Counted from the stretch's first letter, positions 1 to 35,498 are shown. The stretch is 35,498 nt of DNA from a virus (IMGVR_UViG_2531839531_000004:1-35498), one strand, 5' to 3'. The notes: generated by a model not told the origin, from the letters alone. Numbers and translations: made by a program.

Positions 1-32
1 ATTTTTGAACTGCGCCCCAGATCTTGGACAAC

Positions 33-897
33 TTATGCAGCCTGACTCAATCGATATTGTACCGGGCTAAGACCGCCAAGTTTTTCCTTTATCCTCAATT
101 GATTATAATAGTTTATGTAATCAATGATGTCTCGCTTTAAGTCCTCCACATTTTTATATTCATTGAGGTAATAACATTCTGATTTCAATGTTCCAAAAAA
201 GCTCTCTATAACTGCATTATCAAGACAATTTCCCCGGCGAGACTTACTCTGGACTATACCGCTATCCTTTAACCATCGTTGCCACCGGGACATCTGATAT
301 TGCCAACCTTGATCGCTGTGCAGTATGGGGTGTTCATCTTTCGACAGCTGTTTCAGCGCATCCGTAAGCATAGTCTGCACCATTGAAGGTTGAGGGCGAG
401 TGGCGAGGTTATAGGAAATTATTTCTCCATTATAAAGATCCATGACGGGCGACAAATACAGCTTCTTGCCATTCACTTTAAATTCAGTGACATCTGTAAC
501 CCACTTCTCGTTGGGGCGTTTTGCATCAAAATTGCGTTTCAGGAGATTATCGCAAATTCGTCCTTGTTCTCCTTTATATGAACGGTATTTTTTAACGTCG
601 GATCAGGCTGCTAATACCCAGTTCCTTCATCAGTTTTCTGACGGTTTTACCATTAAATAAAACCCCCTCGTTACGACATGCCAGCCTGATGCGTCTGTAA
701 CCATAGCGGCCTTTGTGCTGGTGATAAATTTTCAGCACAAGCGCTCTGGCAGACTGATACCGGTCAGGAGCAGCAAGCCGTCTGACATGATAGTAAAATG
801 TACTCCGGGGCAGCCCGGAAACAATTAACAATCGGGACAATGGCCATTCCTGCCTTAGTTCATTCACAATGCTCACTTTTTCCTGAACGTTGAGCAT
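33..897 (-). pseudogene. IS3-family transposase OrfB (integrase core), disrupted by a 1-bp indel
   Basis: Two ORF pieces (592-897 and 33-476) that read as one continuous OrfB if a single base is removed near 592-597 (CGT-TAA gives a stop; without the extra T it reads RRKKYRSYKGE...). The C-terminal piece carries an rve-like core. Confidence 0.75.
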
Positions 898-1379
898 GTT
901 TTCTGCTGAACCAAGGCTTTCAGCTTTTTTAAGTAGGCATTCTCGACCCTGAGTTGTTCAAGTTCTTCTCTCTCATCTTTGGTTAGTGTTGGTAGTGGTG
1001 GTGCTGAAATGGCGCTTTTATCCGGCACAGGAATACTCTTTTTATTTTTTCGAATGAAAGCATCTTCGCCATATTTTCTATATTTTTCAAGCCAGTTGCA
1101 TACAGTACCAAAGGCTGGTATTCCGTGTTTTACCGCTACTTCACGAACAGAAAAACAGTCATCCACGACTTCTTTTACTACTGTGAGTTTTAACTCAGCA
1201 GAATAGCGTCCTTTTTTACCCGTAAGTATGCTTATCCCATGTTCCCGATAGGCATAAGCCCATTTTCTTACTGTGCAGGGACTGATACCGTACATCCTTG
1301 CTACAGATTTCAGACTCAACTCTCCCTCCAGGTACTTTTCTGATACTACCTTTTTGAACTCCAATGAAAACTTTTCCAT
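873..1379 (-). CDS. IS3-family transposase OrfA (HTH DNA-binding subunit)
   Basis: 168-aa ORF with ATG at 1379. Has HTH region and a C-terminal leucine-zipper-like segment (LEQLRVENAYLKKLKAL) typical of IS3 OrfA. A-AAA-AAG slippery motif near its 3' end (about 925-931, minus strand). Confidence 0.85.
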   Translation of the reverse strand: MEKFSLEFKKVVSEKYLEGELSLKSVARMYGISPCTVRKWAYAYREHGISILTGKKGRYSAELKLTVVKEVVDDCFSVREVAVKHGIPAFGTVCNWLEKYRKYGEDAFIRKNKKSIPVPDKSAISAPPLPTLTKDEREELEQLRVENAYLKKLKALVQQKTCSTFRKK

Positions 1380-1445
1380 GCATCCTCAGTTTTTGGTCTG
1401 GTGTCTAACTTTGGGGCGCAGTTCATTTTTAATGGACACTATCGT

Positions 1446-2093
1446 ATGAAACACCGGACCTGGATCACTGAAGCTTTACGTCTTCACTTTGAAGAACATT
1501 TACCCCGGGTTGTGGCCGGGCGTCGCCTGGGTGTACCAAAATCAACAGTTTGTAGTATGTTCGTGCGCTTTCGGAGAGCTGGCCTTTCGTGGCCTTTGCC
1601 CGCAGGCATGTCGGAGCAGGAACTTGATGCCTGCCTTTACGGACAATTTTCCACGGTACCAGTCGTACGTCCTGAAAGCACCGTTATATCCGAAGCCCCC
1701 GTGGTAAAAAAACGTCCCCGGCGGCCCAACTTCCCTTATGAGTTTAAAATCGCCTTAGTGGAGCAGTCACTGCAGCCCGGAGCCTGTGTGGCGCAGATCG
1801 CCCGGGAAAACGGAATCAACGATAACCTGCTCTTCAACTGGCGCCATCAATACCGGAAAGGTGGCCTGCTGCCTTCCGGAAAAAATATGCCGGCACTGCT
1901 TCCCGTGACGTTAACGCCGGAGCCGGATAATAAAATCCCGGCCCCCGCACAGGAACCAGAGCAGATAAATACACCGTCCGACAGTCTGTGTTGTGAGCTG
2001 GTTCTGCCGGCCGGAACTCTCAGGCTTAAAGGTAAACTGACGCCGGCGTTATTACAGACACTTATCCGCGAAATAAAAGGGAGCAGCCACTGA
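1446..2093 (+). CDS. tnpA: IS66-family accessory protein (orf1/TnpA-like) with N-terminal extension
   Basis: ATG at 1446; the track start at 1401 lies inside the IS3 repeat. C-terminal half (PNFPYEFKIALVEQSLQPGACVAQIARENGINDNLLFNWR) parallels orf1 of copy 2 (RRIFSNEFKLHMVELASKPNANVAQLAREHGVDNNLIFKWL). Confidence 0.7.
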   Translation: MKHRTWITEALRLHFEEHLPRVVAGRRLGVPKSTVCSMFVRFRRAGLSWPLPAGMSEQELDACLYGQFSTVPVVRPESTVISEAPVVKKRPRRPNFPYEFKIALVEQSLQPGACVAQIARENGINDNLLFNWRHQYRKGGLLPSGKNMPALLPVTLTPEPDNKIPAPAQEPEQINTPSDSLCCELVLPAGTLRLKGKLTPALLQTLIREIKGSSH

Positions 2094-2440
2094 TGATATC
2101 TCTCCCTGCAGGTTCGCGTATCTGGCTGGTTGCAGGTATCACCGATATGCGAAATGGCTTTAACGGCCTGGCATCAAAAGTTCAGAACGTCCTGAAGGAT
2201 GACCCGTTCTCCGGACACCTGTTCATCTTCCGCGGACGCCGGGGTGACCAGATAAAAGTGTTGTGGGCTGACAGTGACGGACTGTGCCTCTTCACCAAAC
2301 GCCTGGAGCGGGGCCGCTTCGTCTGGCCAGTCACCCGTGACGGCAAGGTGCACCTTACTCCGGCTCAGTTATCCATGCTTCTTGAAGGTATCAACTGGAA
2401 GCACCCGAAACGAACGGAACGCGCTGGAATCCGCATATAA
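2093..2440 (+). CDS. tnpB: IS66-family TnpB (orf2)
   Basis: 115 aa; closely parallel to copy 2 orf2 (GxRIWLVAGxTDMRxxFNGL...HLFIFRGRRGD...LWAD.DGLCLFTKRLE). Start overlaps the orf1 stop. Confidence 0.85.
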   Translation: MISLPAGSRIWLVAGITDMRNGFNGLASKVQNVLKDDPFSGHLFIFRGRRGDQIKVLWADSDGLCLFTKRLERGRFVWPVTRDGKVHLTPAQLSMLLEGINWKHPKRTERAGIRI

Positions 2441-2459
2441 CCCGTTGTAAAGTGAGGAT

Positions 2460-4031
2460 ATGGACACCTCACTTGCTCATGAGAACGCCCGCCTGCGGGC
2501 ACTGTTGCAGACGCAACAGGACACCATCCGCCAGATGGCTGAATACAACCGCCTGCTCTCACAGCGGGTGGCGGCTTATGCTTCCGAAATCAACCGGCTG
2601 AAGGCGCTGGTTGCGAAACTGCAACGTATGCAGTTCGGTAAAAGCTCAGAAAAACTTCGTGCAAAAACCGAACGGCAGATACAGGAAGCACAGGAGCGAA
2701 TCAGCGCACTTCAGGAAGAAATGGCGGAAACGCTGGGTGAGCAATATGACCCGGTACTGCCATCCGCCCTGCGCCAGTCTTCAGCCCGTAAACCGTTACC
2801 GGCCTCACTTCCCCGTGAAACCCGGGTTATCCGGCCGGAAGAGGAATGCTGTCCTGCCTGTGGTGGTGAACTCAGTTCTCTGGGATGTGATGTGTCAGAG
2901 CAACTGGAGCTTATCAGCAGCGCCTTTAAGGTTATCGAAACACAACGTCCGAAACAGGCCTGTTGCCGGTGCGACCATATCGTGCAGGCACCAGTACCTT
3001 CAAAACCCATTGCACGCAGTTATGCCGGAGCGGGGCTTCTGGCCCATGTTGTCACCGGGAAATATGCAGACCATCTGCCGTTATACCGCCAGTCAGAAAT
3101 ATACCGTCGTCAGGGAGTGGAGCTGAGCCGTGCCACACTGGGGCGCTGGACAGGTGCTGTTGCTGAACTGCTGGAGCCGCTGTATGACGTCCTGCGCCAG
3201 TATGTGCTGATGCCCGGTAAAGTCCATGCTGATGATATCCCCGTCCCGGTCCAGGAGCCGGGCAGCGGTAAAACCCGGACAGCCCGGCTGTGGGTCTACG
3301 TCCGTGATGACCGTAACGCCGGTTCACAGATGCCCCCGGCGGTCTGGTTCGCGTACAGTCCGGACCGGAAAGGTATCCATCCACAAAATCACCTGGCCGG
3401 TTACAGCGGTGTGCTTCAGGCCGATGCTTACGGTGGTTACCGGGCGTTATACGAATCCGGCAGAATAACGGAAGCCGCGTGTATGGCTCATGCCCGGAGA
3501 AAAATCCACGATGTGCATGCAAGAGCGCCCACCTACATCACCACGGAAGCCCTGCAGCGTATCGGTGAACTGTATGCCATCGAGGCAGAGGTCCGGGGCT
3601 GTTCAGCAGAACAGCGTCTGGCGGCAAGAAAAGCCAGAGCCGCGCCACTGATGCAGTCACTGTATGACTGGATACAGCAACAGATGAAAACACTGTCGCG
3701 TCACTCAGATACGGCAAAAGCGTTCGCATACCTGCTGAAACAGTGGGATGCACTGAACGTGTACTGCAGTAATGGCTGGGTGGAAATCGACAACAACATC
3801 GCAGAGAACGCCTTACGGGGAGTGGCCGTAGGCCGGAAAAACTGGATGTTCGCGGGTTCCGACAGCGGTGGTGAACATGCGGCGGTGTTGTACTCGTTGA
3901 TCGGCACATGCCGTCTGAACAATGTGGAGCCAGAAAAGTGGCTGCGTTACGTCATTGAACATATCCAGGACTGGCCGGCAAACCGGGTACGCGATCTGTT
4001 GCCCTGGAAAGTTGATCTGAGCTCTCAGTAA
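2460..4031 (+). CDS. tnpC: IS66-family transposase TnpC (orf3)
   Basis: 523-aa ORF with N-terminal coiled-coil, CxxC...CxC zinc-finger-like region, and the conserved HLPLYRQSE, [11 protein letters not shown] and ADAYGGY segments shared with copy 2. Confidence 0.85.
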
Positions 4032-4133
4032 ATATCAATACGGTTCTGACGAGTCGCTTACTAGTGAGTTGTATCTATTTATTTTCCAATAAATACAATT
4101 GGTTATGTGTTTTTAGGTGGGGCGATCGTGAGG

Positions 4134-4166
4134 CAAAGAAAACCCGGCGCTGAGGCCGGGCTTTTA
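4134..4166. terminator. Bidirectional intrinsic terminator-like hairpin
   Basis: Stem CCCGGC (4143-4148) / GCCGGG (4155-4160) with a 6-nt loop, A-run upstream and CTTTT downstream. On the minus strand it sits 17 bp past the stop of the 4183-5220 gene and is followed by a U-run. Confidence 0.55.
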
Positions 4167-4182: not shown

Positions 4183-5220
4183 TTAACACCCTTTAATGGG
4201 AGTTGAGATACGAGATATCATTGCTGATTCAATTATCCCACTTCTGACTTTATAGTCACCAAAAAGAGAAATTGAATCAGAAAGTTTCATGCTTTCATAA
4301 AGAAGGTCTGTTTCGTCTTTATCTATAAAATCAGTAACAACATAAGCAGGGAAGGTATAATCAGTGCCAACCTTTTTGCAAGTTACTGTCAGCTTTCCAT
4401 CTGATTTTTTAATGCCTTCAATTTCAACTTCTTCTGTAAGTTCTTTGTTGGAAAGTTTCTCACGTGGGTTTCTTATCATTTCGGCAATATCACGCTTATC
4501 TAATTCGATCTTTGCCATACCATTAAACTCTACTCTGTCAGCATCTGAGACGCCTTTCAACACCCCAACCACAGCATTTGAAGTATGGGATTGAATTCCC
4601 TCTGAAATCTCCCTCGCAGCTGCTGTGGCAGTATGAGCAGAAAGAACTTCAACCATGCCATCTTTAAGCAGTCTCATTTGCTCAGTTTGGCTGTTGGTGT
4701 CGTTGAGGCCTTCATCAATCTCAAGTTGCTTCATTTTTTCTATATGGCGATCTTTTTGTCTCGACTTTATCAGCCAAGCCCCAGTAAGGATCAGCGATAT
4801 GAGAACGAGACATATAGCTTTCTCTGTTCCAGTCATACCTTGTGTTGACCTCTCAAATGCAACACCAAATGAATCAATTACATCCTTTATAGCAACAAGT
4901 AGGTCAGTACAGCCAGGCTCAACTTTAAAAATTATCTCAAGCTCTTTTCTATCACTGTCTTTCAAATGCTTGAGATTATCCGTTCCTCGCCTTACAAGCA
5001 TAAACGCTTTATAAAGTTCGGTCTGAAACTCGCACATACCTTGAGCTAAAGAGGACGGTATCGTCCCATTATACCGGTCTGGATCACCATAAATCTTGAA
5101 ACTTACGTGGTTAACAAAATCAATTTTAATGTCATTGATAGATATTTGCTGACCTTTCTGAACTCTTTCTAAAAACTCTGAAACGTCGCTTAATGATGAG
5201 ATATCAATTTGATTGTCCAT
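4183..5220 (-). CDS. Hypothetical single-pass membrane protein (345 aa) in the rexAB position downstream of cI
   Basis: Long ORF directly downstream of and co-oriented with cI. Start chosen at ATG 5220 (MDNQIDISS...), 22 bp past the cI stop. One hydrophobic segment (KAICLVLISLILTGAWLI) followed by a basic cluster (KSRQKDRHIEK). Region is AT-rich (about 37% GC in a 60-bp count at 4201-4260) against roughly 50% flanks. No similarity to RexA/RexB that I can recognise. Confidence 0.6.
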   Translation of the reverse strand: MDNQIDISSLSDVSEFLERVQKGQQISINDIKIDFVNHVSFKIYGDPDRYNGTIPSSLAQGMCEFQTELYKAFMLVRRGTDNLKHLKDSDRKELEIIFKVEPGCTDLLVAIKDVIDSFGVAFERSTQGMTGTEKAICLVLISLILTGAWLIKSRQKDRHIEKMKQLEIDEGLNDTNSQTEQMRLLKDGMVEVLSAHTATAAAREISEGIQSHTSNAVVGVLKGVSDADRVEFNGMAKIELDKRDIAEMIRNPREKLSNKELTEEVEIEGIKKSDGKLTVTCKKVGTDYTFPAYVVTDFIDKDETDLLYESMKLSDSISLFGDYKVRSGIIESAMISRISTPIKGC

Positions 5221-5242
5221 ATCTTTTCTCAATGTTATTGTG

Positions 5243-5959
<717 letters not shown>

Positions 5960-8659: not shown

Positions 8660-8730
8660 ATGAAAAAACTAACCTTTGAAATTCGATCTCCAGCACATCA
8701 GCAAAACGCTATTCACGCGGTACAGCAAAT
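8660..8730 (+). pseudogene. ninB: ninB 5' fragment (first ~23 codons), truncated by IS66 insertion
   Basis: ATG at 8660 gives MKKLTFEIRSPAHQQNAIHAVQQ, the lambda NinB N-terminus as I recall it. The reading frame runs straight into the IS66 left repeat at 8731. Confidence 0.8.
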
Positions 8731-8815
8731 GTAAGCGTAAAGCCAATGCCGTCTGTAACACCTGCTCCTTGCAGACTAAATTAGAGCTCCTTCTAAATTA
8801 GACGGAGTTCTATTG

Positions 8816-9247
8816 ATGGATAAACCTACAGACTGGCGCTCCGGAACCCGCCGGATATTTTCTAATGAATTTAAACTTCATATGGTTGAACTGGCTTCGA
8901 AACCAAATGCCAATGTTGCACAACTGGCCCGGGAACATGGCGTTGATAACAACCTGATTTTTAAATGGCTACGCCTCTGGCAAAGAGAAGGACGTATTTC
9001 TCGTAGAATGCCTCCAACTATTGTAGGCCCTACAGTATCACAATCTTTTCCGGCCTCTCCGACTCTGGTTCCAGTGGAACTTATCGACACCCCGCGCTGT
9101 GCTACAGATGCTCCTGCTCCGGAGGCATTATCAGTTGCTTGCGCAGCTTCCTGCCATGTGGAATTCCATTACGGTAAAATGATGCTGGAAAATCCTTCAC
9201 CAGAGCTGCTCACGGTGTTGATCCGTGAGCTGACCGGGAGGGGATGA
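8816..9247 (+). CDS. tnpA: IS66-family accessory protein (orf1/TnpA)
   Basis: ATG at 8816 (MDKPTDWRSGTRRIFSNEFKLHMVELASKPNANVAQLAREHGVDNNLIFKWLR...); HTH-like region; stop overlaps the orf2 start. Confidence 0.8.
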   Translation: MDKPTDWRSGTRRIFSNEFKLHMVELASKPNANVAQLAREHGVDNNLIFKWLRLWQREGRISRRMPPTIVGPTVSQSFPASPTLVPVELIDTPRCATDAPAPEALSVACAASCHVEFHYGKMMLENPSPELLTVLIRELTGRG

Positions 9248-9597
9248 TGATTTCACTCCCATCAGGTACCCGTATCTGGCTCGTTGCCGGCGTTACTGAT
9301 ATGCGTAAATCCTTCAACGGTCTGGGGGAGCAGATACAGCATGTGCTGGATGATAACCCCTTCTCCGGTCACCTGTTTATCTTCCGTGGCCGACGGGGAG
9401 ACACGATTAAAATCCTGTGGGCTGATGCTGATGGTCTGTGCCTGTTCACCAAACGCCTTGAGGAAGGTCAGTTTATCTGGCCTGCGGTGCGTGACGGTAA
9501 GATATCCATTACCCGCTCGCAACTGGCAATGCTCCTCGATAAGCTGGACTGGCGTCAGCCAAAAACATCCCGCCTTAACGCACTGACAATGTTGTAA
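9244..9597 (+). CDS. tnpB: IS66-family TnpB (orf2)
   Basis: 117 aa, parallel to copy 1 TnpB. Confidence 0.85.
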   Translation: MMISLPSGTRIWLVAGVTDMRKSFNGLGEQIQHVLDDNPFSGHLFIFRGRRGDTIKILWADADGLCLFTKRLEEGQFIWPAVRDGKISITRSQLAMLLDKLDWRQPKTSRLNALTML

Positions 9598-9627
9598 AAA
9601 ACGCCGGGCCGGATTATAAAAACGGCC

Positions 9628-11240
9628 ATGAGTCAGAAATACCTCATTCGCATCGCTGAGCTGGAAAGGCTGCTCTCTGAGCAGGCTGAAGCCCTCCGTC
9701 AGAAAGACCAGCAACTGAGTCTGGTTGAAGAGACGGAGGCCTTCCTGCGCTCTGCACTGGCACGTGCCGAAGAAAAGATCGAAGAAGATGAGCGAGAAAT
9801 AGAGCATCTGCGGGCTCAGATAGAAAAACTGCGCCGGATGCTGTTTGGAACCCGTTCTGAAAAACTGCGTCGTGAGGTTGAACAGGCTGAAGCCCTGCTG
9901 AAACAACGCGAGCAGGAAAGCGATCGTTACAGTGGGCGTGAGGATGACCCGCTGGTTCCCCGCCAGTTGCGACAGTCGCGCCATCGTCGTCCGTTACCGG
10001 CACATCTCCCCCGTGAAATATACCGCCTGGAGCCTGAAGAAAGCTGTTGCCCGGAGTGTGGCGGTGAGCTGGATTATCTGGGGGAAGTCAGCGCAGAACA
10101 ACTGGAACTGGTGAGCAGCGCCCTGAAAGTGATCCGCACAGAACGGGTAAAAAAGCCTGTACAAAATGTGACTGCATCGTTGAAGCACCGGCGCCGTCCC
10201 GCCCGATAGAGCGTGGTATCGCGGGCCCCGGATTACTTGCCCGCGTGTTAACGGGAAAATACTGCGAACACCTGCCACTGTATCGTCAGAGTGAAATCTT
10301 TGCCCGACAGGGTGTCGAACTGAGCCGTGCATTACTCTCCAACTGGGTTGACGCGTGCTGCCAGTTAATGACGCCGCTGAATGATGCCCTGTACCGTTAT
10401 GTGATGAATACCCGCAAGCTTCACACTGACGACACACCGGTAAAGGTACTGGCACCGGGCCTGAAAAAGACGAAAACAGGGCGCATCTGGACGTATGTCC
10501 GGGATGATCGCAATGCGGGTTCGTCATCTCCTCCGGCGGTCTGGTTCGCGTACTCATCGAACCGGCAGGGGAAACACCCGGAGCAACACCTCCGCCCCTT
10601 CCGGGGTATCCTGCAGGCGGATGCGTTCACAGGTTATGACAGGCTGTTCAGTGCAGAACGTGAAGGTAGTGCGCTGACAGAAGTTGCGTGCTGGGCTCAT
10701 GCCCGGAGAAAAATCCACGATGTATACATCAGCAGCAAAAGTGCGACGGCAGAAGAAGCCCTGAAGCGAATCAGTGAACTGTACGCCATCGAGGATGAAA
10801 TACGGGGATTACCAGAGTCAGAACGTCTTGCAGCCAGGCAGCAGCGAAGCAAAGCGTTACTGACGTCGCTGCATGAATGGATGGTGGAGAAGAATGGCAC
10901 GCTGTCGAAAAAATCCAGACTGGGCGAAGCGTTCAGCTATGTACTGAATCAGTGGGACGCCCTCTGTTATTACAGTGATGACGGTCTGGCGGAGGTGGAC
11001 AATAACACAGCGGAAAGAGCGCTTCGTGCAGTCTGTCTCGGAAAGAAAAATTACGTGTTCTTCGGTAGCGATCACGGCGGCGAGCGTGGAGCACTGCTGT
11101 ACGGGCTGATCGGCACCTGCCGTCTGAACGGTATCGATCCGGAAGCGTATCTGCGCCATATTCTGAGCGTACTGCCGGAATGGCCCTCCAACCGTGTTGA
11201 CGAACTCCTGCCATGGAACGTAGTACTCACCAATAAATAA
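9628..11240 (+). pseudogene. tnpC: IS66-family transposase TnpC, split by a 1-bp frameshift at an A-run
   Basis: ORFs 9628-10209 and 10245-11240 together cover a full TnpC. In the -1 frame from the A6 run at 10149-10154 the sequence reads [49 protein letters not shown], aligning with copy 1 (...[46 protein letters not shown]). Confidence 0.8.
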
Positions 11241-11270
11241 GCGTCAATACGGTGCTCCGTTGACGCTTAC

Positions 11271-33938: not shown

Positions 33939-35498
33939 ATGGGTAAAGGCAGCAGTAAGGGGCATACTCCGCGCGAAGCGAAGGACAACCTGAAGTCCAC
34001 GCAGTTGCTGAGTGTGATCGATGCCATCAGCGAAGGGCCGGTTGAAGGTCCGGTGGATGGATTAAAAAGCGTGCTGCTGAACAGTACGCCAGTGCTGGAC
34101 AGTGAGGGGAATACCAATATCTCCGGCGTCACGGTGGTGTTCCGGGCCGGTGAGCAGGAGCAGACACCGCCGGAGGGATTTGAATCCTCCGGCTCCGAGA
34201 CGGTGCTGGGTACGGAAGTGAAATACGACACGCCGATCACCCGGACCATCACGTCGGCAAACATTGACCGACTGCGTTTTACCTTCGGCGTGCAGGCACT
34301 GGTGGAAACCACCTCAAAGGGGGACAGGAATCCGTCGGAAGTCCGCCTGCTGGTTCAGATCCAGCGTAATGGTGGCTGGGTGACGGAAAAAGATATCACC
34401 ATTAAGGGCAAAACCACCTCGCAGTATCTGGCCTCGGTGGTGGTGGGTAACCTGCCGCCGCGCCCGTTCAATATCCGGATGCGCAGGATGACGCCGGACA
34501 GCACCACAGACCAGCTGCAGAACAAAACGCTCTGGTCGTCATACACCGAAATCATCGATGTGAAACAGGGCTACCCGAACACGGCACTGGTCGGCGTGCA
34601 GGTGGATTCGGAGCAGTTCGGCAGCCAGCAGGTGAGCCGTAATTATCATCTGCGCGGGCGCATTCTGCAGGTGCCGTCGAACTATAACCCGCAGACGCGG
34701 CAATACAGCGGTATCTGGGACGGGACGTTTAAACCGGCATACAGCAACAACATGGCCTGGTGTCTGTGGGATATGCTGACCCACCCGCGCTACGGCATGG
34801 GGAAACGTCTCGGTGCGGCGGATGTGGACAAATGGGCGCTGTATGTCATCGGCCAGAATTGTGACCAGTCGGTGCCGGACGGCTTTGGCGGTACGGAGCC
34901 GCGCATCACCTGTAATGCCTGGCTGACCACACAGCGCAAGGCGTGGGATGTGCTCAGTGATTTCTGCTCGGCGATGCGCTGTATGCCGGTATGGAACGGG
35001 CAGACGCTGACGTTCGTGCAGGACCGACCGTCGGATAAGGTGTGGACCTATAACCGCAGTAATGTGGTGATGCCGGATGATGGTGCGCCGTTCCGCTACA
35101 GCTTCAGCGCCCTGAAGGACCGCCATAATGCCGTTGAGGTGAACTGGATTGACCCGAATAACGGCTGGGAGACGGCGACAGAGCTTGTGGAGGACACGCA
35201 GGCCATTGCCCGTTACGGTCGTAACGTCACGAAGATGGATGCTTTTTGGCTGTACCAGCCGGGGGCAGGCACACCGCGCCGGGCTGTGGCTGATTAAAAC
35301 AGAACTGCTGGAAACGCAGACCGTGGACTTCAGCGTGGGTGCCGAAGGGCTTCGCCATGTACCGGGCGATGTCATTGAAATCTGCGATGATGACTATGCC
35401 GGTATCCGCACCGGCGGGCGCGTGCTGGCGGTAAACAGCCAGACCCGGACGCTGACGCTCGACCGTGAAATCACGCTGCCATCTTCCGGCACCACGCT
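33939..35498 (+). pseudogene. J: Central tail fibre / host-specificity protein J, interrupted by a +1-nt frameshift; 3' end beyond the window
   Basis: The first 452 codons match lambda gpJ, then stop at 35295-35297. After the T5 run at 35244-35248 the next frame stays open to the window end and reads GCTSRGQAHRAGLWLIKTELLETQTVDFSVGAEGLRHVPGDVIEICDDDYAG..., which I recall as the lambda J continuation. Confidence 0.8.

Follow-up and report, generated by a model that had tools for sequence, protein, structure and literature searches.

The subject of this report is the left end of a 35,498-nucleotide stretch of viral DNA (IMGVR_UViG_2531839531_000004:1-35498; hereafter the window, by which we mean the whole stretch that was analysed), where two insertion sequences (IS) precede a lambda-like prophage. 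Read together with related copies, window positions 1-4061 would represent nearly all of a 4123-bp nested pair, namely a 1420-bp element of the IS3 family that would lie inside a 2699-bp ISCro1-type element of the IS66 family, 67 bp from the left end of the latter and 21 bp before the ATG of its first gene, tnpA. The name ISCro1 follows the label given to tnpC by the Prokaryotic Genome Annotation Pipeline (PGAP; 'ISCro1 family'). Handles such as L003 denote loci used for comparison.

Anatomy of the nested pair

The features of the region, in the order of their coordinates and with the strand where one applies, are the following.

1-5, plus strand: last 5 bp (ATTTT) of the 67-bp ISCro1-type left segment, matching ...CCATCATTTT in L001, L002, L006 and the intact L003
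2-5, plus strand: TTTT duplicated on insertion of the IS3 element, left copy, within ATTTT (1-5)
6-1425, minus strand: IS3-family (IS150-group) insertion sequence, 1420 bp, from its terminal repeats, Pfam matches and full-length relatives
6-19: terminal inverted repeat at the orfB-distal end, TGAACTGCGCCCCA, with an imperfect continuation to about 27 bp and an inner TTGGACA motif
33-897, minus strand: orfB (HTH_21 and rve DDE core), split here into 592-897 and 33-476
873-1379, minus strand: orfA, 168 amino acids (aa), with two helix-turn-helix (HTH) motifs (HTH_28, HTH_Tnp_1)
924-930, minus strand: slippery heptamer A_AAA_AAG for -1 programmed frameshifting, from the sequence and the frame translations
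1412-1425: terminal inverted repeat at the orfA-proximal end, TGGGGCGCAGTTCA, complement of TGAACTGCGCCCCA
1426-1429, plus strand: right copy of the TTTT duplication (5 T in the empty site, 4 + 5 T in the occupied one)
1426-4061, plus strand: right-hand 2636 bp of the 2699-bp ISCro1-type element, 99.7% identical to L003 3004-5639
1432-1442, plus strand: right arm of the target palindrome, ATGGACACTAT, from the intact palindrome at L003 2996-3015 and the hairpin fold
1446-2093, plus strand: IS66 tnpA, 215 aa from the ATG at 1446, with HTH_Tnp_1 in the C-terminal half
2093-2440, plus strand: IS66 tnpB, 115 aa (PF05717, E 5e-40)
2460-4031, plus strand: IS66 tnpC, DDE transposase, 523 aa (PF03050, E 2.5e-103; PGAP 'ISCro1 family')
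4036-4061: ISCro1 right terminal inverted repeat, complement of GTAAGCGACTCGTCAGAACCGTATTG, its end set by target duplications
4062-4069, plus strand: TAGTGAGT, the 8 bp duplicated around the composite, right copy; the prophage resumes here, about 80 bp right of OL3

The inverted repeats of the IS3-family element are perfect over 14 bp (6-19 against 1412-1425) and have the form TGAAC...GTTCA, and the element combines TG...CA ends with a target duplication of 3-4 bp, as is expected of the IS3 family. Gene content of both elements was assigned by Pfam domain matching; PF00665, PF13333 and PF13683 were matched in orfB, and orfA and orfB together encode a DDE transposase with an rve core. In the orfA frame, positions 924-932 of the minus strand read TTA AAA AAG, that is, the classical A_AAA_AAG -1 site, and sister copies carry the PGAP mark 'IS3 family transposase, programmed frameshift'. 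The element is flanked by ATTTT (1-5) and TTTTT (1426-1430), and, because the empty site has 5 T whereas the occupied one has 4 + 5, the duplication is the 4-bp TTTT. An earlier reading of the window, made from the sequence alone, had already noticed the perfect 14-bp repeats and a possible TTT(T) duplication; its layout stands, while its coordinates have to be shifted by about one base, to 6-1425.

Full-length copies of this element at 99% identity or more occur in many Escherichia coli records, and it is present in 321 of the 5426 complete E. coli genomes surveyed, the exact orfA protein being found on more than 1000 contigs. The copy in the window departs from all the other copies examined in having an extra T at 598, which splits orfB ahead of the DDE core (AACGTCGG against AACGCGG elsewhere), and in lacking one C within the subterminal repeat, at 1409. 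A long homopolymer run is involved in neither case, and the change at 598 could be either a true mutation or a sequencing error. In L001, L002 and L006, which do not have the extra T, orfB reads through. As judged from the sequence, the frameshift in orfB at 598 would leave the window copy unable to make its transposase or to move autonomously, while other copies are intact. As for a name, the protein clusters give only 'IS3 family transposase' and 'IS150 InsB'; the end of the element had no match in species-representative genomes, and a literature search with its terminal sequence returned nothing.

The IS66-family genes follow one another in the order tnpA-tnpB-tnpC with the IS66 Pfam domains, all three frames being open in the window, and the right repeat ends at 4061 (...GAGTCGCTTAC). 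A GTG at 1401 falls inside the IS3 element and is not a real tnpA start. Uninterrupted ISCro1-type copies measure 2699 bp and are found, 100% identical over their full length, in many E. coli chromosomes and plasmids; records holding ISCro1-type targets number 2182. Intact copies are flanked by 8-bp duplications, namely GGAAGAAG in L039 and AGATTTTC in L040. Their left repeat is GTAACCGGCTCATTTAAACCGTCTGG (starting GTAACCGGCTCATTT...), which makes it of the GTAACCG type and not of the GTAAGCG type that the sequence-only reading had looked for, and it agrees with the right repeat at 18 of 26 positions. That reading was correct in stating that the first IS66 frame begins 21 bases after the last IS3 base (first ATG of tnpA at 1446) and that the 20-bp gap in between (1426-1445, TTTTTAATGGACACTATCGT) contains no GTAAGCG-like repeat. 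The window displays the right repeat only, and no left one is visible because position 1 would fall 62 bp to the right of where the ISCro1 left repeat begins; in L001, L002 and L006 the left repeat starts 62 bp before the equivalent of position 1, and it sits 62 bp upstream in all related copies.

In the intact ISCro1 of L003 the site of the IS3 element reads CATCATTTTTAATGG, with 5 T, while the occupied site in the window and its relatives reads CATCATTTT-IS3-TTTTTAATGG, 67 bp from the ISCro1 left end. The junction between the two elements is shared by 25 or more independent complete E. coli records and is therefore no assembly artefact. One could still argue that 1426-4061 is a complete IS66 element, next to which the IS3 element merely happens to lie, and that a degenerate left repeat such as GTACGTCC is to be sought near 1666, where, by eye, GTACGTCCTGAAAGCACCGTTAT bears a weak likeness to the right repeat. 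Yet the start of intact copies with 8-bp duplications falls 67 bp left of 1426, the flanks of independent ISCro1-type copies part exactly at GTAACCGG, and the sequence on either side of the IS3 element is continuous in intact copies, so that we give this explanation practically no weight. The unit at 1426-4061 is incomplete, 67 bp including the left repeat being missing from it, and the nested reading stands; L001, L002, L006 and the intact copies all agree with the earlier proposal that the IS3 element inserted into the left end of the IS66 copy, whose true left repeat would lie before position 1. An internal degenerate left repeat near 1666 is ruled out by the target duplications and the intact copies. 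The nested pair itself, one interrupted ISCro1-type element and one IS3 element, is a matter of ordinary annotation, and only the palindrome-specific targeting described below is of wider interest.

A different association of the two elements is seen at L003 5640-5879, in enterotoxigenic E. coli plasmids and in several records, where the right end of the intact ISCro1 abuts a 240-bp fragment of the IS3 element (window 1187-1425). This junction is without an 8-bp duplication and thus represents a rearranged association.

Palindromic targets of the IS3-family element

The IS3 element interrupts a palindrome whose right arm is retained at 1432-1442 and whose left arm, ATAATGTCCAT, would sit just upstream of the window. 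The target has the form GTGTCCAT-N-ATGGACAC, with a spacer of 8 in GTGTCCAT-N8-ATGGACAC, and its wild-type sequence is GTGTCCATCATTTTTAATGGACAC. The flanks of the element elsewhere fall into very few sites, and the distinct sites share GTCCA-N9-11-TGGAC centred on the insertion point, as listed here with the duplicated bases in parentheses.

Left end of ISCro1, in either orientation, and a variant of ISCro1: ATAATGTCCATCA(TTTT)TAATGGACACTAT; window, L001, L002, L006, L008, L018, L022
Spacer between cvrA and dadX, both orientations: ATAGTGTCCATCC(TTT)TAATGGACACTAT; L009, L017, L019, L024, L031, L032
ydcZ: GGTGTCCAGCG(TGCG)CTGGTGGACAC; L007, L014, L020
Insertion site in L015: CGTGTCCATCA(ATAT)AGATGGACGCG
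Second IS66 lineage (94% IS3 variant), no clean duplication: GCGTCCAC... to the left and ...GTGGACACTATCC to the right, then the tnpA ATG; L028-30
Third IS66 lineage (90% relative, Enterobacter plasmid): GTTCCCACTA..TAGTGGACAC, about 28 bp upstream of the start codon of tnpA; L038, L010

The target duplications are accordingly TTTT in the window and TGCG, ATAT and TTTA elsewhere, with TTT at cvrA-dadX. In an unbiased look-up of contigs carrying OrfA, all contexts (10 of 10) were at the ISCro1 left end, at cvrA-dadX or at ydcZ. The shared motif is not a common one: it is expected about once per genome by chance, it has no match in the 35.5-kb window (0.05 expected), and among the 33 fetched loci it is confined to the left ends of the two intact ISCro1 copies. 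At cvrA-dadX, an empty site with precisely the reconstructed sequence does exist. What is more, all of the reconstructed targets fold, by computation, as hairpins with loops of 6-8 nucleotides, in which the IS is located. In other words, the insertions lie in the loop of a specific palindrome, in the manner of IS1397 and ISKpn1, the targets being GTGTCCAT..ATGGACAC palindromes and not REP sequences (repetitive extragenic palindromes), or palindromic units, belonging to bacterial interspersed mosaic elements. From these natural insertion sites we infer that the IS3 element is site-specific for the palindrome loop, in which case its placement in ISCro1 would not be a matter of chance. Such a target preference may not have been described before.

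Would the same picture arise if a single chance insertion into ISCro1 had simply been spread by descent or by movement of the composite, with no real target preference at all? Some descent is certain, as the IS3 copies are nearly identical in all contexts, and ISCro1-type duplications accompany the composite at several sites, as would fit its moving as a unit. However, insertions in both orientations are known from one and the same ISCro1 site, and likewise from the cvrA-dadX site, while unrelated sites (ydcZ, L015, the two other IS66 lineages and the Enterobacter plasmid) share the palindrome. We therefore regard an origin by chance as very improbable. That said, a number of observations weigh against a strict preference for the palindrome. 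Namely, the IS3 flanks in L011, L012 and L016, and in the rearranged L036 and L037, are without a clear palindrome or without a duplication, and L033 presents a half-site only; moreover, recognition by the transposase is something that we infer. A further point against the overall picture is that scans for promoters, covering the left end of intact ISCro1 and the junction of IS3 with tnpA, gave no promoter-like sequence that would account for the expression of tnpABC after the insertion.

As to how the site might be found, there is a likeness between the half-site TGGACAC and TTGGACA/TTAGACAC, the inner motif in the terminal repeats of the element itself, and the HTH_Tnp_1 domain is common to the IS3 OrfA and the ISCro1 TnpA, which are 29% identical over 68 aa. 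The transposase may recognise the palindrome, possibly via the HTH that reads TTGGACA in its own terminal repeats. Taking this further, the IS150-group element could be viewed as a sequence-specific parasite of the IS66 family, which would home to a conserved operator-like palindrome just upstream of tnpA in several lineages of that family and ride with its host to new replicons, recognition possibly involving the shared HTH_Tnp_1 fold and the half-site that resembles the terminal repeat; we offer this only tentatively, and consider it rather doubtful.

The palindrome also bears on the start of tnpA. In intact copies PGAP places this start 30 nucleotides further upstream (L003 2994), inside the palindrome, giving a protein of 225 aa (MSIIFNGHYR-MKHRT...). 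Because the tnpA ATG comes shortly after the palindrome in two other IS66 lineages, translation more likely begins at 1446, with the palindrome upstream of it probably serving as a 5' regulatory site; the conserved palindrome upstream of IS66 tnpA may, in other words, have a regulatory role. As an aside, the N-terminal half of the ISCro1 TnpA (1446-1760, residues 1-105 of a protein of 215-225 aa) is without a Pfam match, and by eye it shows a candidate likeness to the HTH region of IS21-type IstA (...GLSWPLP...).

The composite in the prophage and its spread

Prophage sequence resumes directly after the ISCro1 right end. For prophages that share its immunity region but are free of IS elements, the alignment with the window starts at exactly 4062, and the immunity region is 100% identical to that of phage mEp332 over the stretch compared. 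One such prophage, L004, provides the empty site, in which the insertion point lies about 80 bp right of OL3, with the OL/pL/N region on one side and, on the other, the terminator of the gene that follows cI. The other side of the insertion is found in L006, an IMG/VR provirus contig that was retrieved with a pattern consisting of prophage sequence, TAGTGAGT and the ISCro1 left repeat. In L006 the left arm, with ybhC, int, xis, exo, bet, gam, kil, cIII, ral, N and OL, is 99.9% identical to L004 and runs directly into TAGTGAGT, the ISCro1 left repeat, 62 bp and then the IS3 element. The right junction with TAGTGAGT is seen in the window and in L005. As TAGTGAGT lies left of ISCro1, before the left repeat, in L006 and at 4062-4069 in the window, the 4123-bp composite is a simple insertion with the 8-bp duplication typical of the IS66 family, and four other ISCro1-type copies have perfect 8-bp duplications as well. 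Nothing was lost in L006, and for the window the same would follow from the sequences of its close relatives. An ISCro1-type element with imperfect 26-bp ends and an 8-bp duplication would thus have entered a lambda-like prophage with mEp332-type immunity, and the DNA upstream of the window would consist of OL/pL/N and an intact left arm, TAGTGAGT and then 62 bp (...GTAACCGGCTCATTTAAACCGTCTGGTCTGTTTCCTCCGGCTCTACAAAAATAATGTCCATC).

The sequence-only reading had instead taken the IS pile to mark the edge of a prophage remnant and to be the likely agent of the loss of the left arm. Taken further, this would mean an IS-mediated deletion of the int-to-N arm, with non-prophage DNA upstream of the composite. 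Certainly, there is no prophage DNA left of the IS elements in the window, IS66 and IS3 elements can cause adjacent deletions, and rearranged copies without duplications do exist elsewhere (L003, L036, L037). On the other hand, in L006 the whole left arm is present at this very site and TAGTGAGT is perfectly duplicated, the matching right copy being found in the window, and bases 1-5 of the window still match the ISCro1 left segment. Furthermore, the window ends inside gene J (gpJ), and its limits are therefore arbitrary cuts and not the end point of a deletion. For these reasons we hold a truncated prophage to be unlikely. Two points count against the interpretation as a simple insertion: the exact right junction is absent from species-representative genomes, metagenome contigs and the 5426 complete E. 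coli genomes, and was found elsewhere only in one 5.7-kb IMG/VR contig, and the left junction is known through L006, a close relative with 5 differences in 2440 bp, and not from the source genome. All in all, building on observed anatomy, ends, both duplications, empty sites and recurrent palindromic targets, we are quite confident, if short of certain, of the overall picture of a nested pair that arrived by simple insertion, with an IS3 element that homes to a palindrome and a prophage that is interrupted and not truncated. The composite should consequently not be taken for the boundary of a prophage; if the left end of IS66 and the left prophage arm are missing, this is an effect of where the window was cut.

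How the composite has spread is a separate question. Either the 4123-bp composite transposes as a unit via the ISCro1 ends, or resident ISCro1 copies have been hit independently, and we consider the odds between the two to be even. Perfect 8-bp duplications surround the whole composite at three sites, two of which, with both ISCro1 ends, are in the pap operon (TTTATTTC, L001) and on a plasmid (TTTCATCT, L002); other distinct left flanks, in L013, L023 and L025, likewise speak for movement as a unit. Independent hits, in turn, are favoured by the strong site-specificity, by both orientations being common and by the 2182 records that offer ISCro1-type targets. Orientation A, that of the window, was counted in 25 records and orientation B in up to 166, the latter number being an upper bound, as cvrA-dadX copies may pass the coverage threshold too. 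A bias of A over B was at one point considered as evidence for unit movement and was dropped, orientation B being at least as common. No diagnostic single-nucleotide polymorphism (SNP) was found that parts ISCro1-resident IS3 copies from the others, nor any SNP marker of a composite lineage, and a search for genomes in which an ISCro1 without the IS3 element occupies the site of a composite gave none. Palindrome targeting would explain why the IS3/IS66 pair recurs, in both orientations, in E. coli chromosomes and in virulence or resistance plasmids.

Two plasmids carry related arrangements. On plasmid pKMi025_3 (L002 7232-9907) the composite adjoins a gene annotated as anti-phage protein Ppl, amid IS21 and IS66 copies. 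On the Enterobacter plasmid (L038 10631-14009) an IS21-family element has in turn split the 90% relative of the IS3 element, and on either side this relative borders the tnpA-proximal side of an ISCro1-like element; such an arrangement suggests that two composites of opposite orientation have undergone an inversion between them.

A few features of the prophage itself may be recorded here. On the minus strand at 4183-5307, in the place of rexA/rexB downstream of cI, lies an open reading frame of 374 aa, annotated as hypothetical or, in phage mEp332, as 'T2SS GspM containing protein', and it is followed at about 4140-4166 by a terminator-like stem-loop with a T-run. At 8730/8731 the alignment with L004 is lost, 8731-11268 (about 2.5 kb) being absent from L004, and L005, otherwise 99.98% identical to the window, has 407 extra bases at this point; the region looks like a variable module after the replication genes. 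Finally, the gpJ tail-fibre gene (33939-35498) has a stop at 35297, after 452 aa, and its best relatives align 1599 query bases to 1598, which is probably a one-base indel, that is, a frameshift.

Comparison with known elements

The outer element resembles the ISCro1/IS679 type in its tnpA-tnpB-tnpC order, its length of about 2.7 kb, its imperfect repeats starting with GTAA and its 8-bp duplications, and the window copy differs from that type in being interrupted by another IS 67 bp from the left end. The ISCro1 of strain EC958 is given as 2,824 bp (PMC8764528), as compared to the 2,699 bp found here.

For the inner element, the closest named relative found is ISEcB1, likewise of the IS150 group (OrfB 59% and OrfA 44% identical), which has TGAACTG...CCCCA...TTGGACA repeats too, and the one copy of it that was examined lies in the loop of the nuoN terminator hairpin with a CATG duplication. 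ISEcB1 is nevertheless too diverged to be the same IS, and its target sequence differs. IS911 reportedly targets sequences that resemble its own terminal repeats, and the likeness between the half-site TGGACAC and the terminal-repeat motif of the present element is at least a lead in this direction, by analogy; the spacing of the half-sites in the present target differs, however, from that of a repeat-repeat junction.

In behaviour, the nearest parallels are IS1397 and ISKpn1, which insert specifically into palindromic REP units (PMC1525189). Both belong to the IS150 group as well; the OrfB of IS1397 is 52% identical, and its repeats follow the TGAACTG..CCCCA..TTGGACA pattern; with both IS1397 and ISKpn1 the present element shares duplications of 3-4 bp and insertion into the loop of a short palindrome, and the one IS1397 copy examined sits in a REP hairpin loop. 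The target is another one, however, namely GTGTCCAT..ATGGACAC instead of REP, which is rare in the chromosome and is met mainly at the left ends of IS66-family elements. A strict palindromic target in an IS150-group element would enlarge the small set of palindrome-homing IS3 elements, of which IS1397 and ISKpn1 are the known cases, and we treat the present element as one of this kind, distinct from IS1397 because the behaviour is the same but the palindrome is another.

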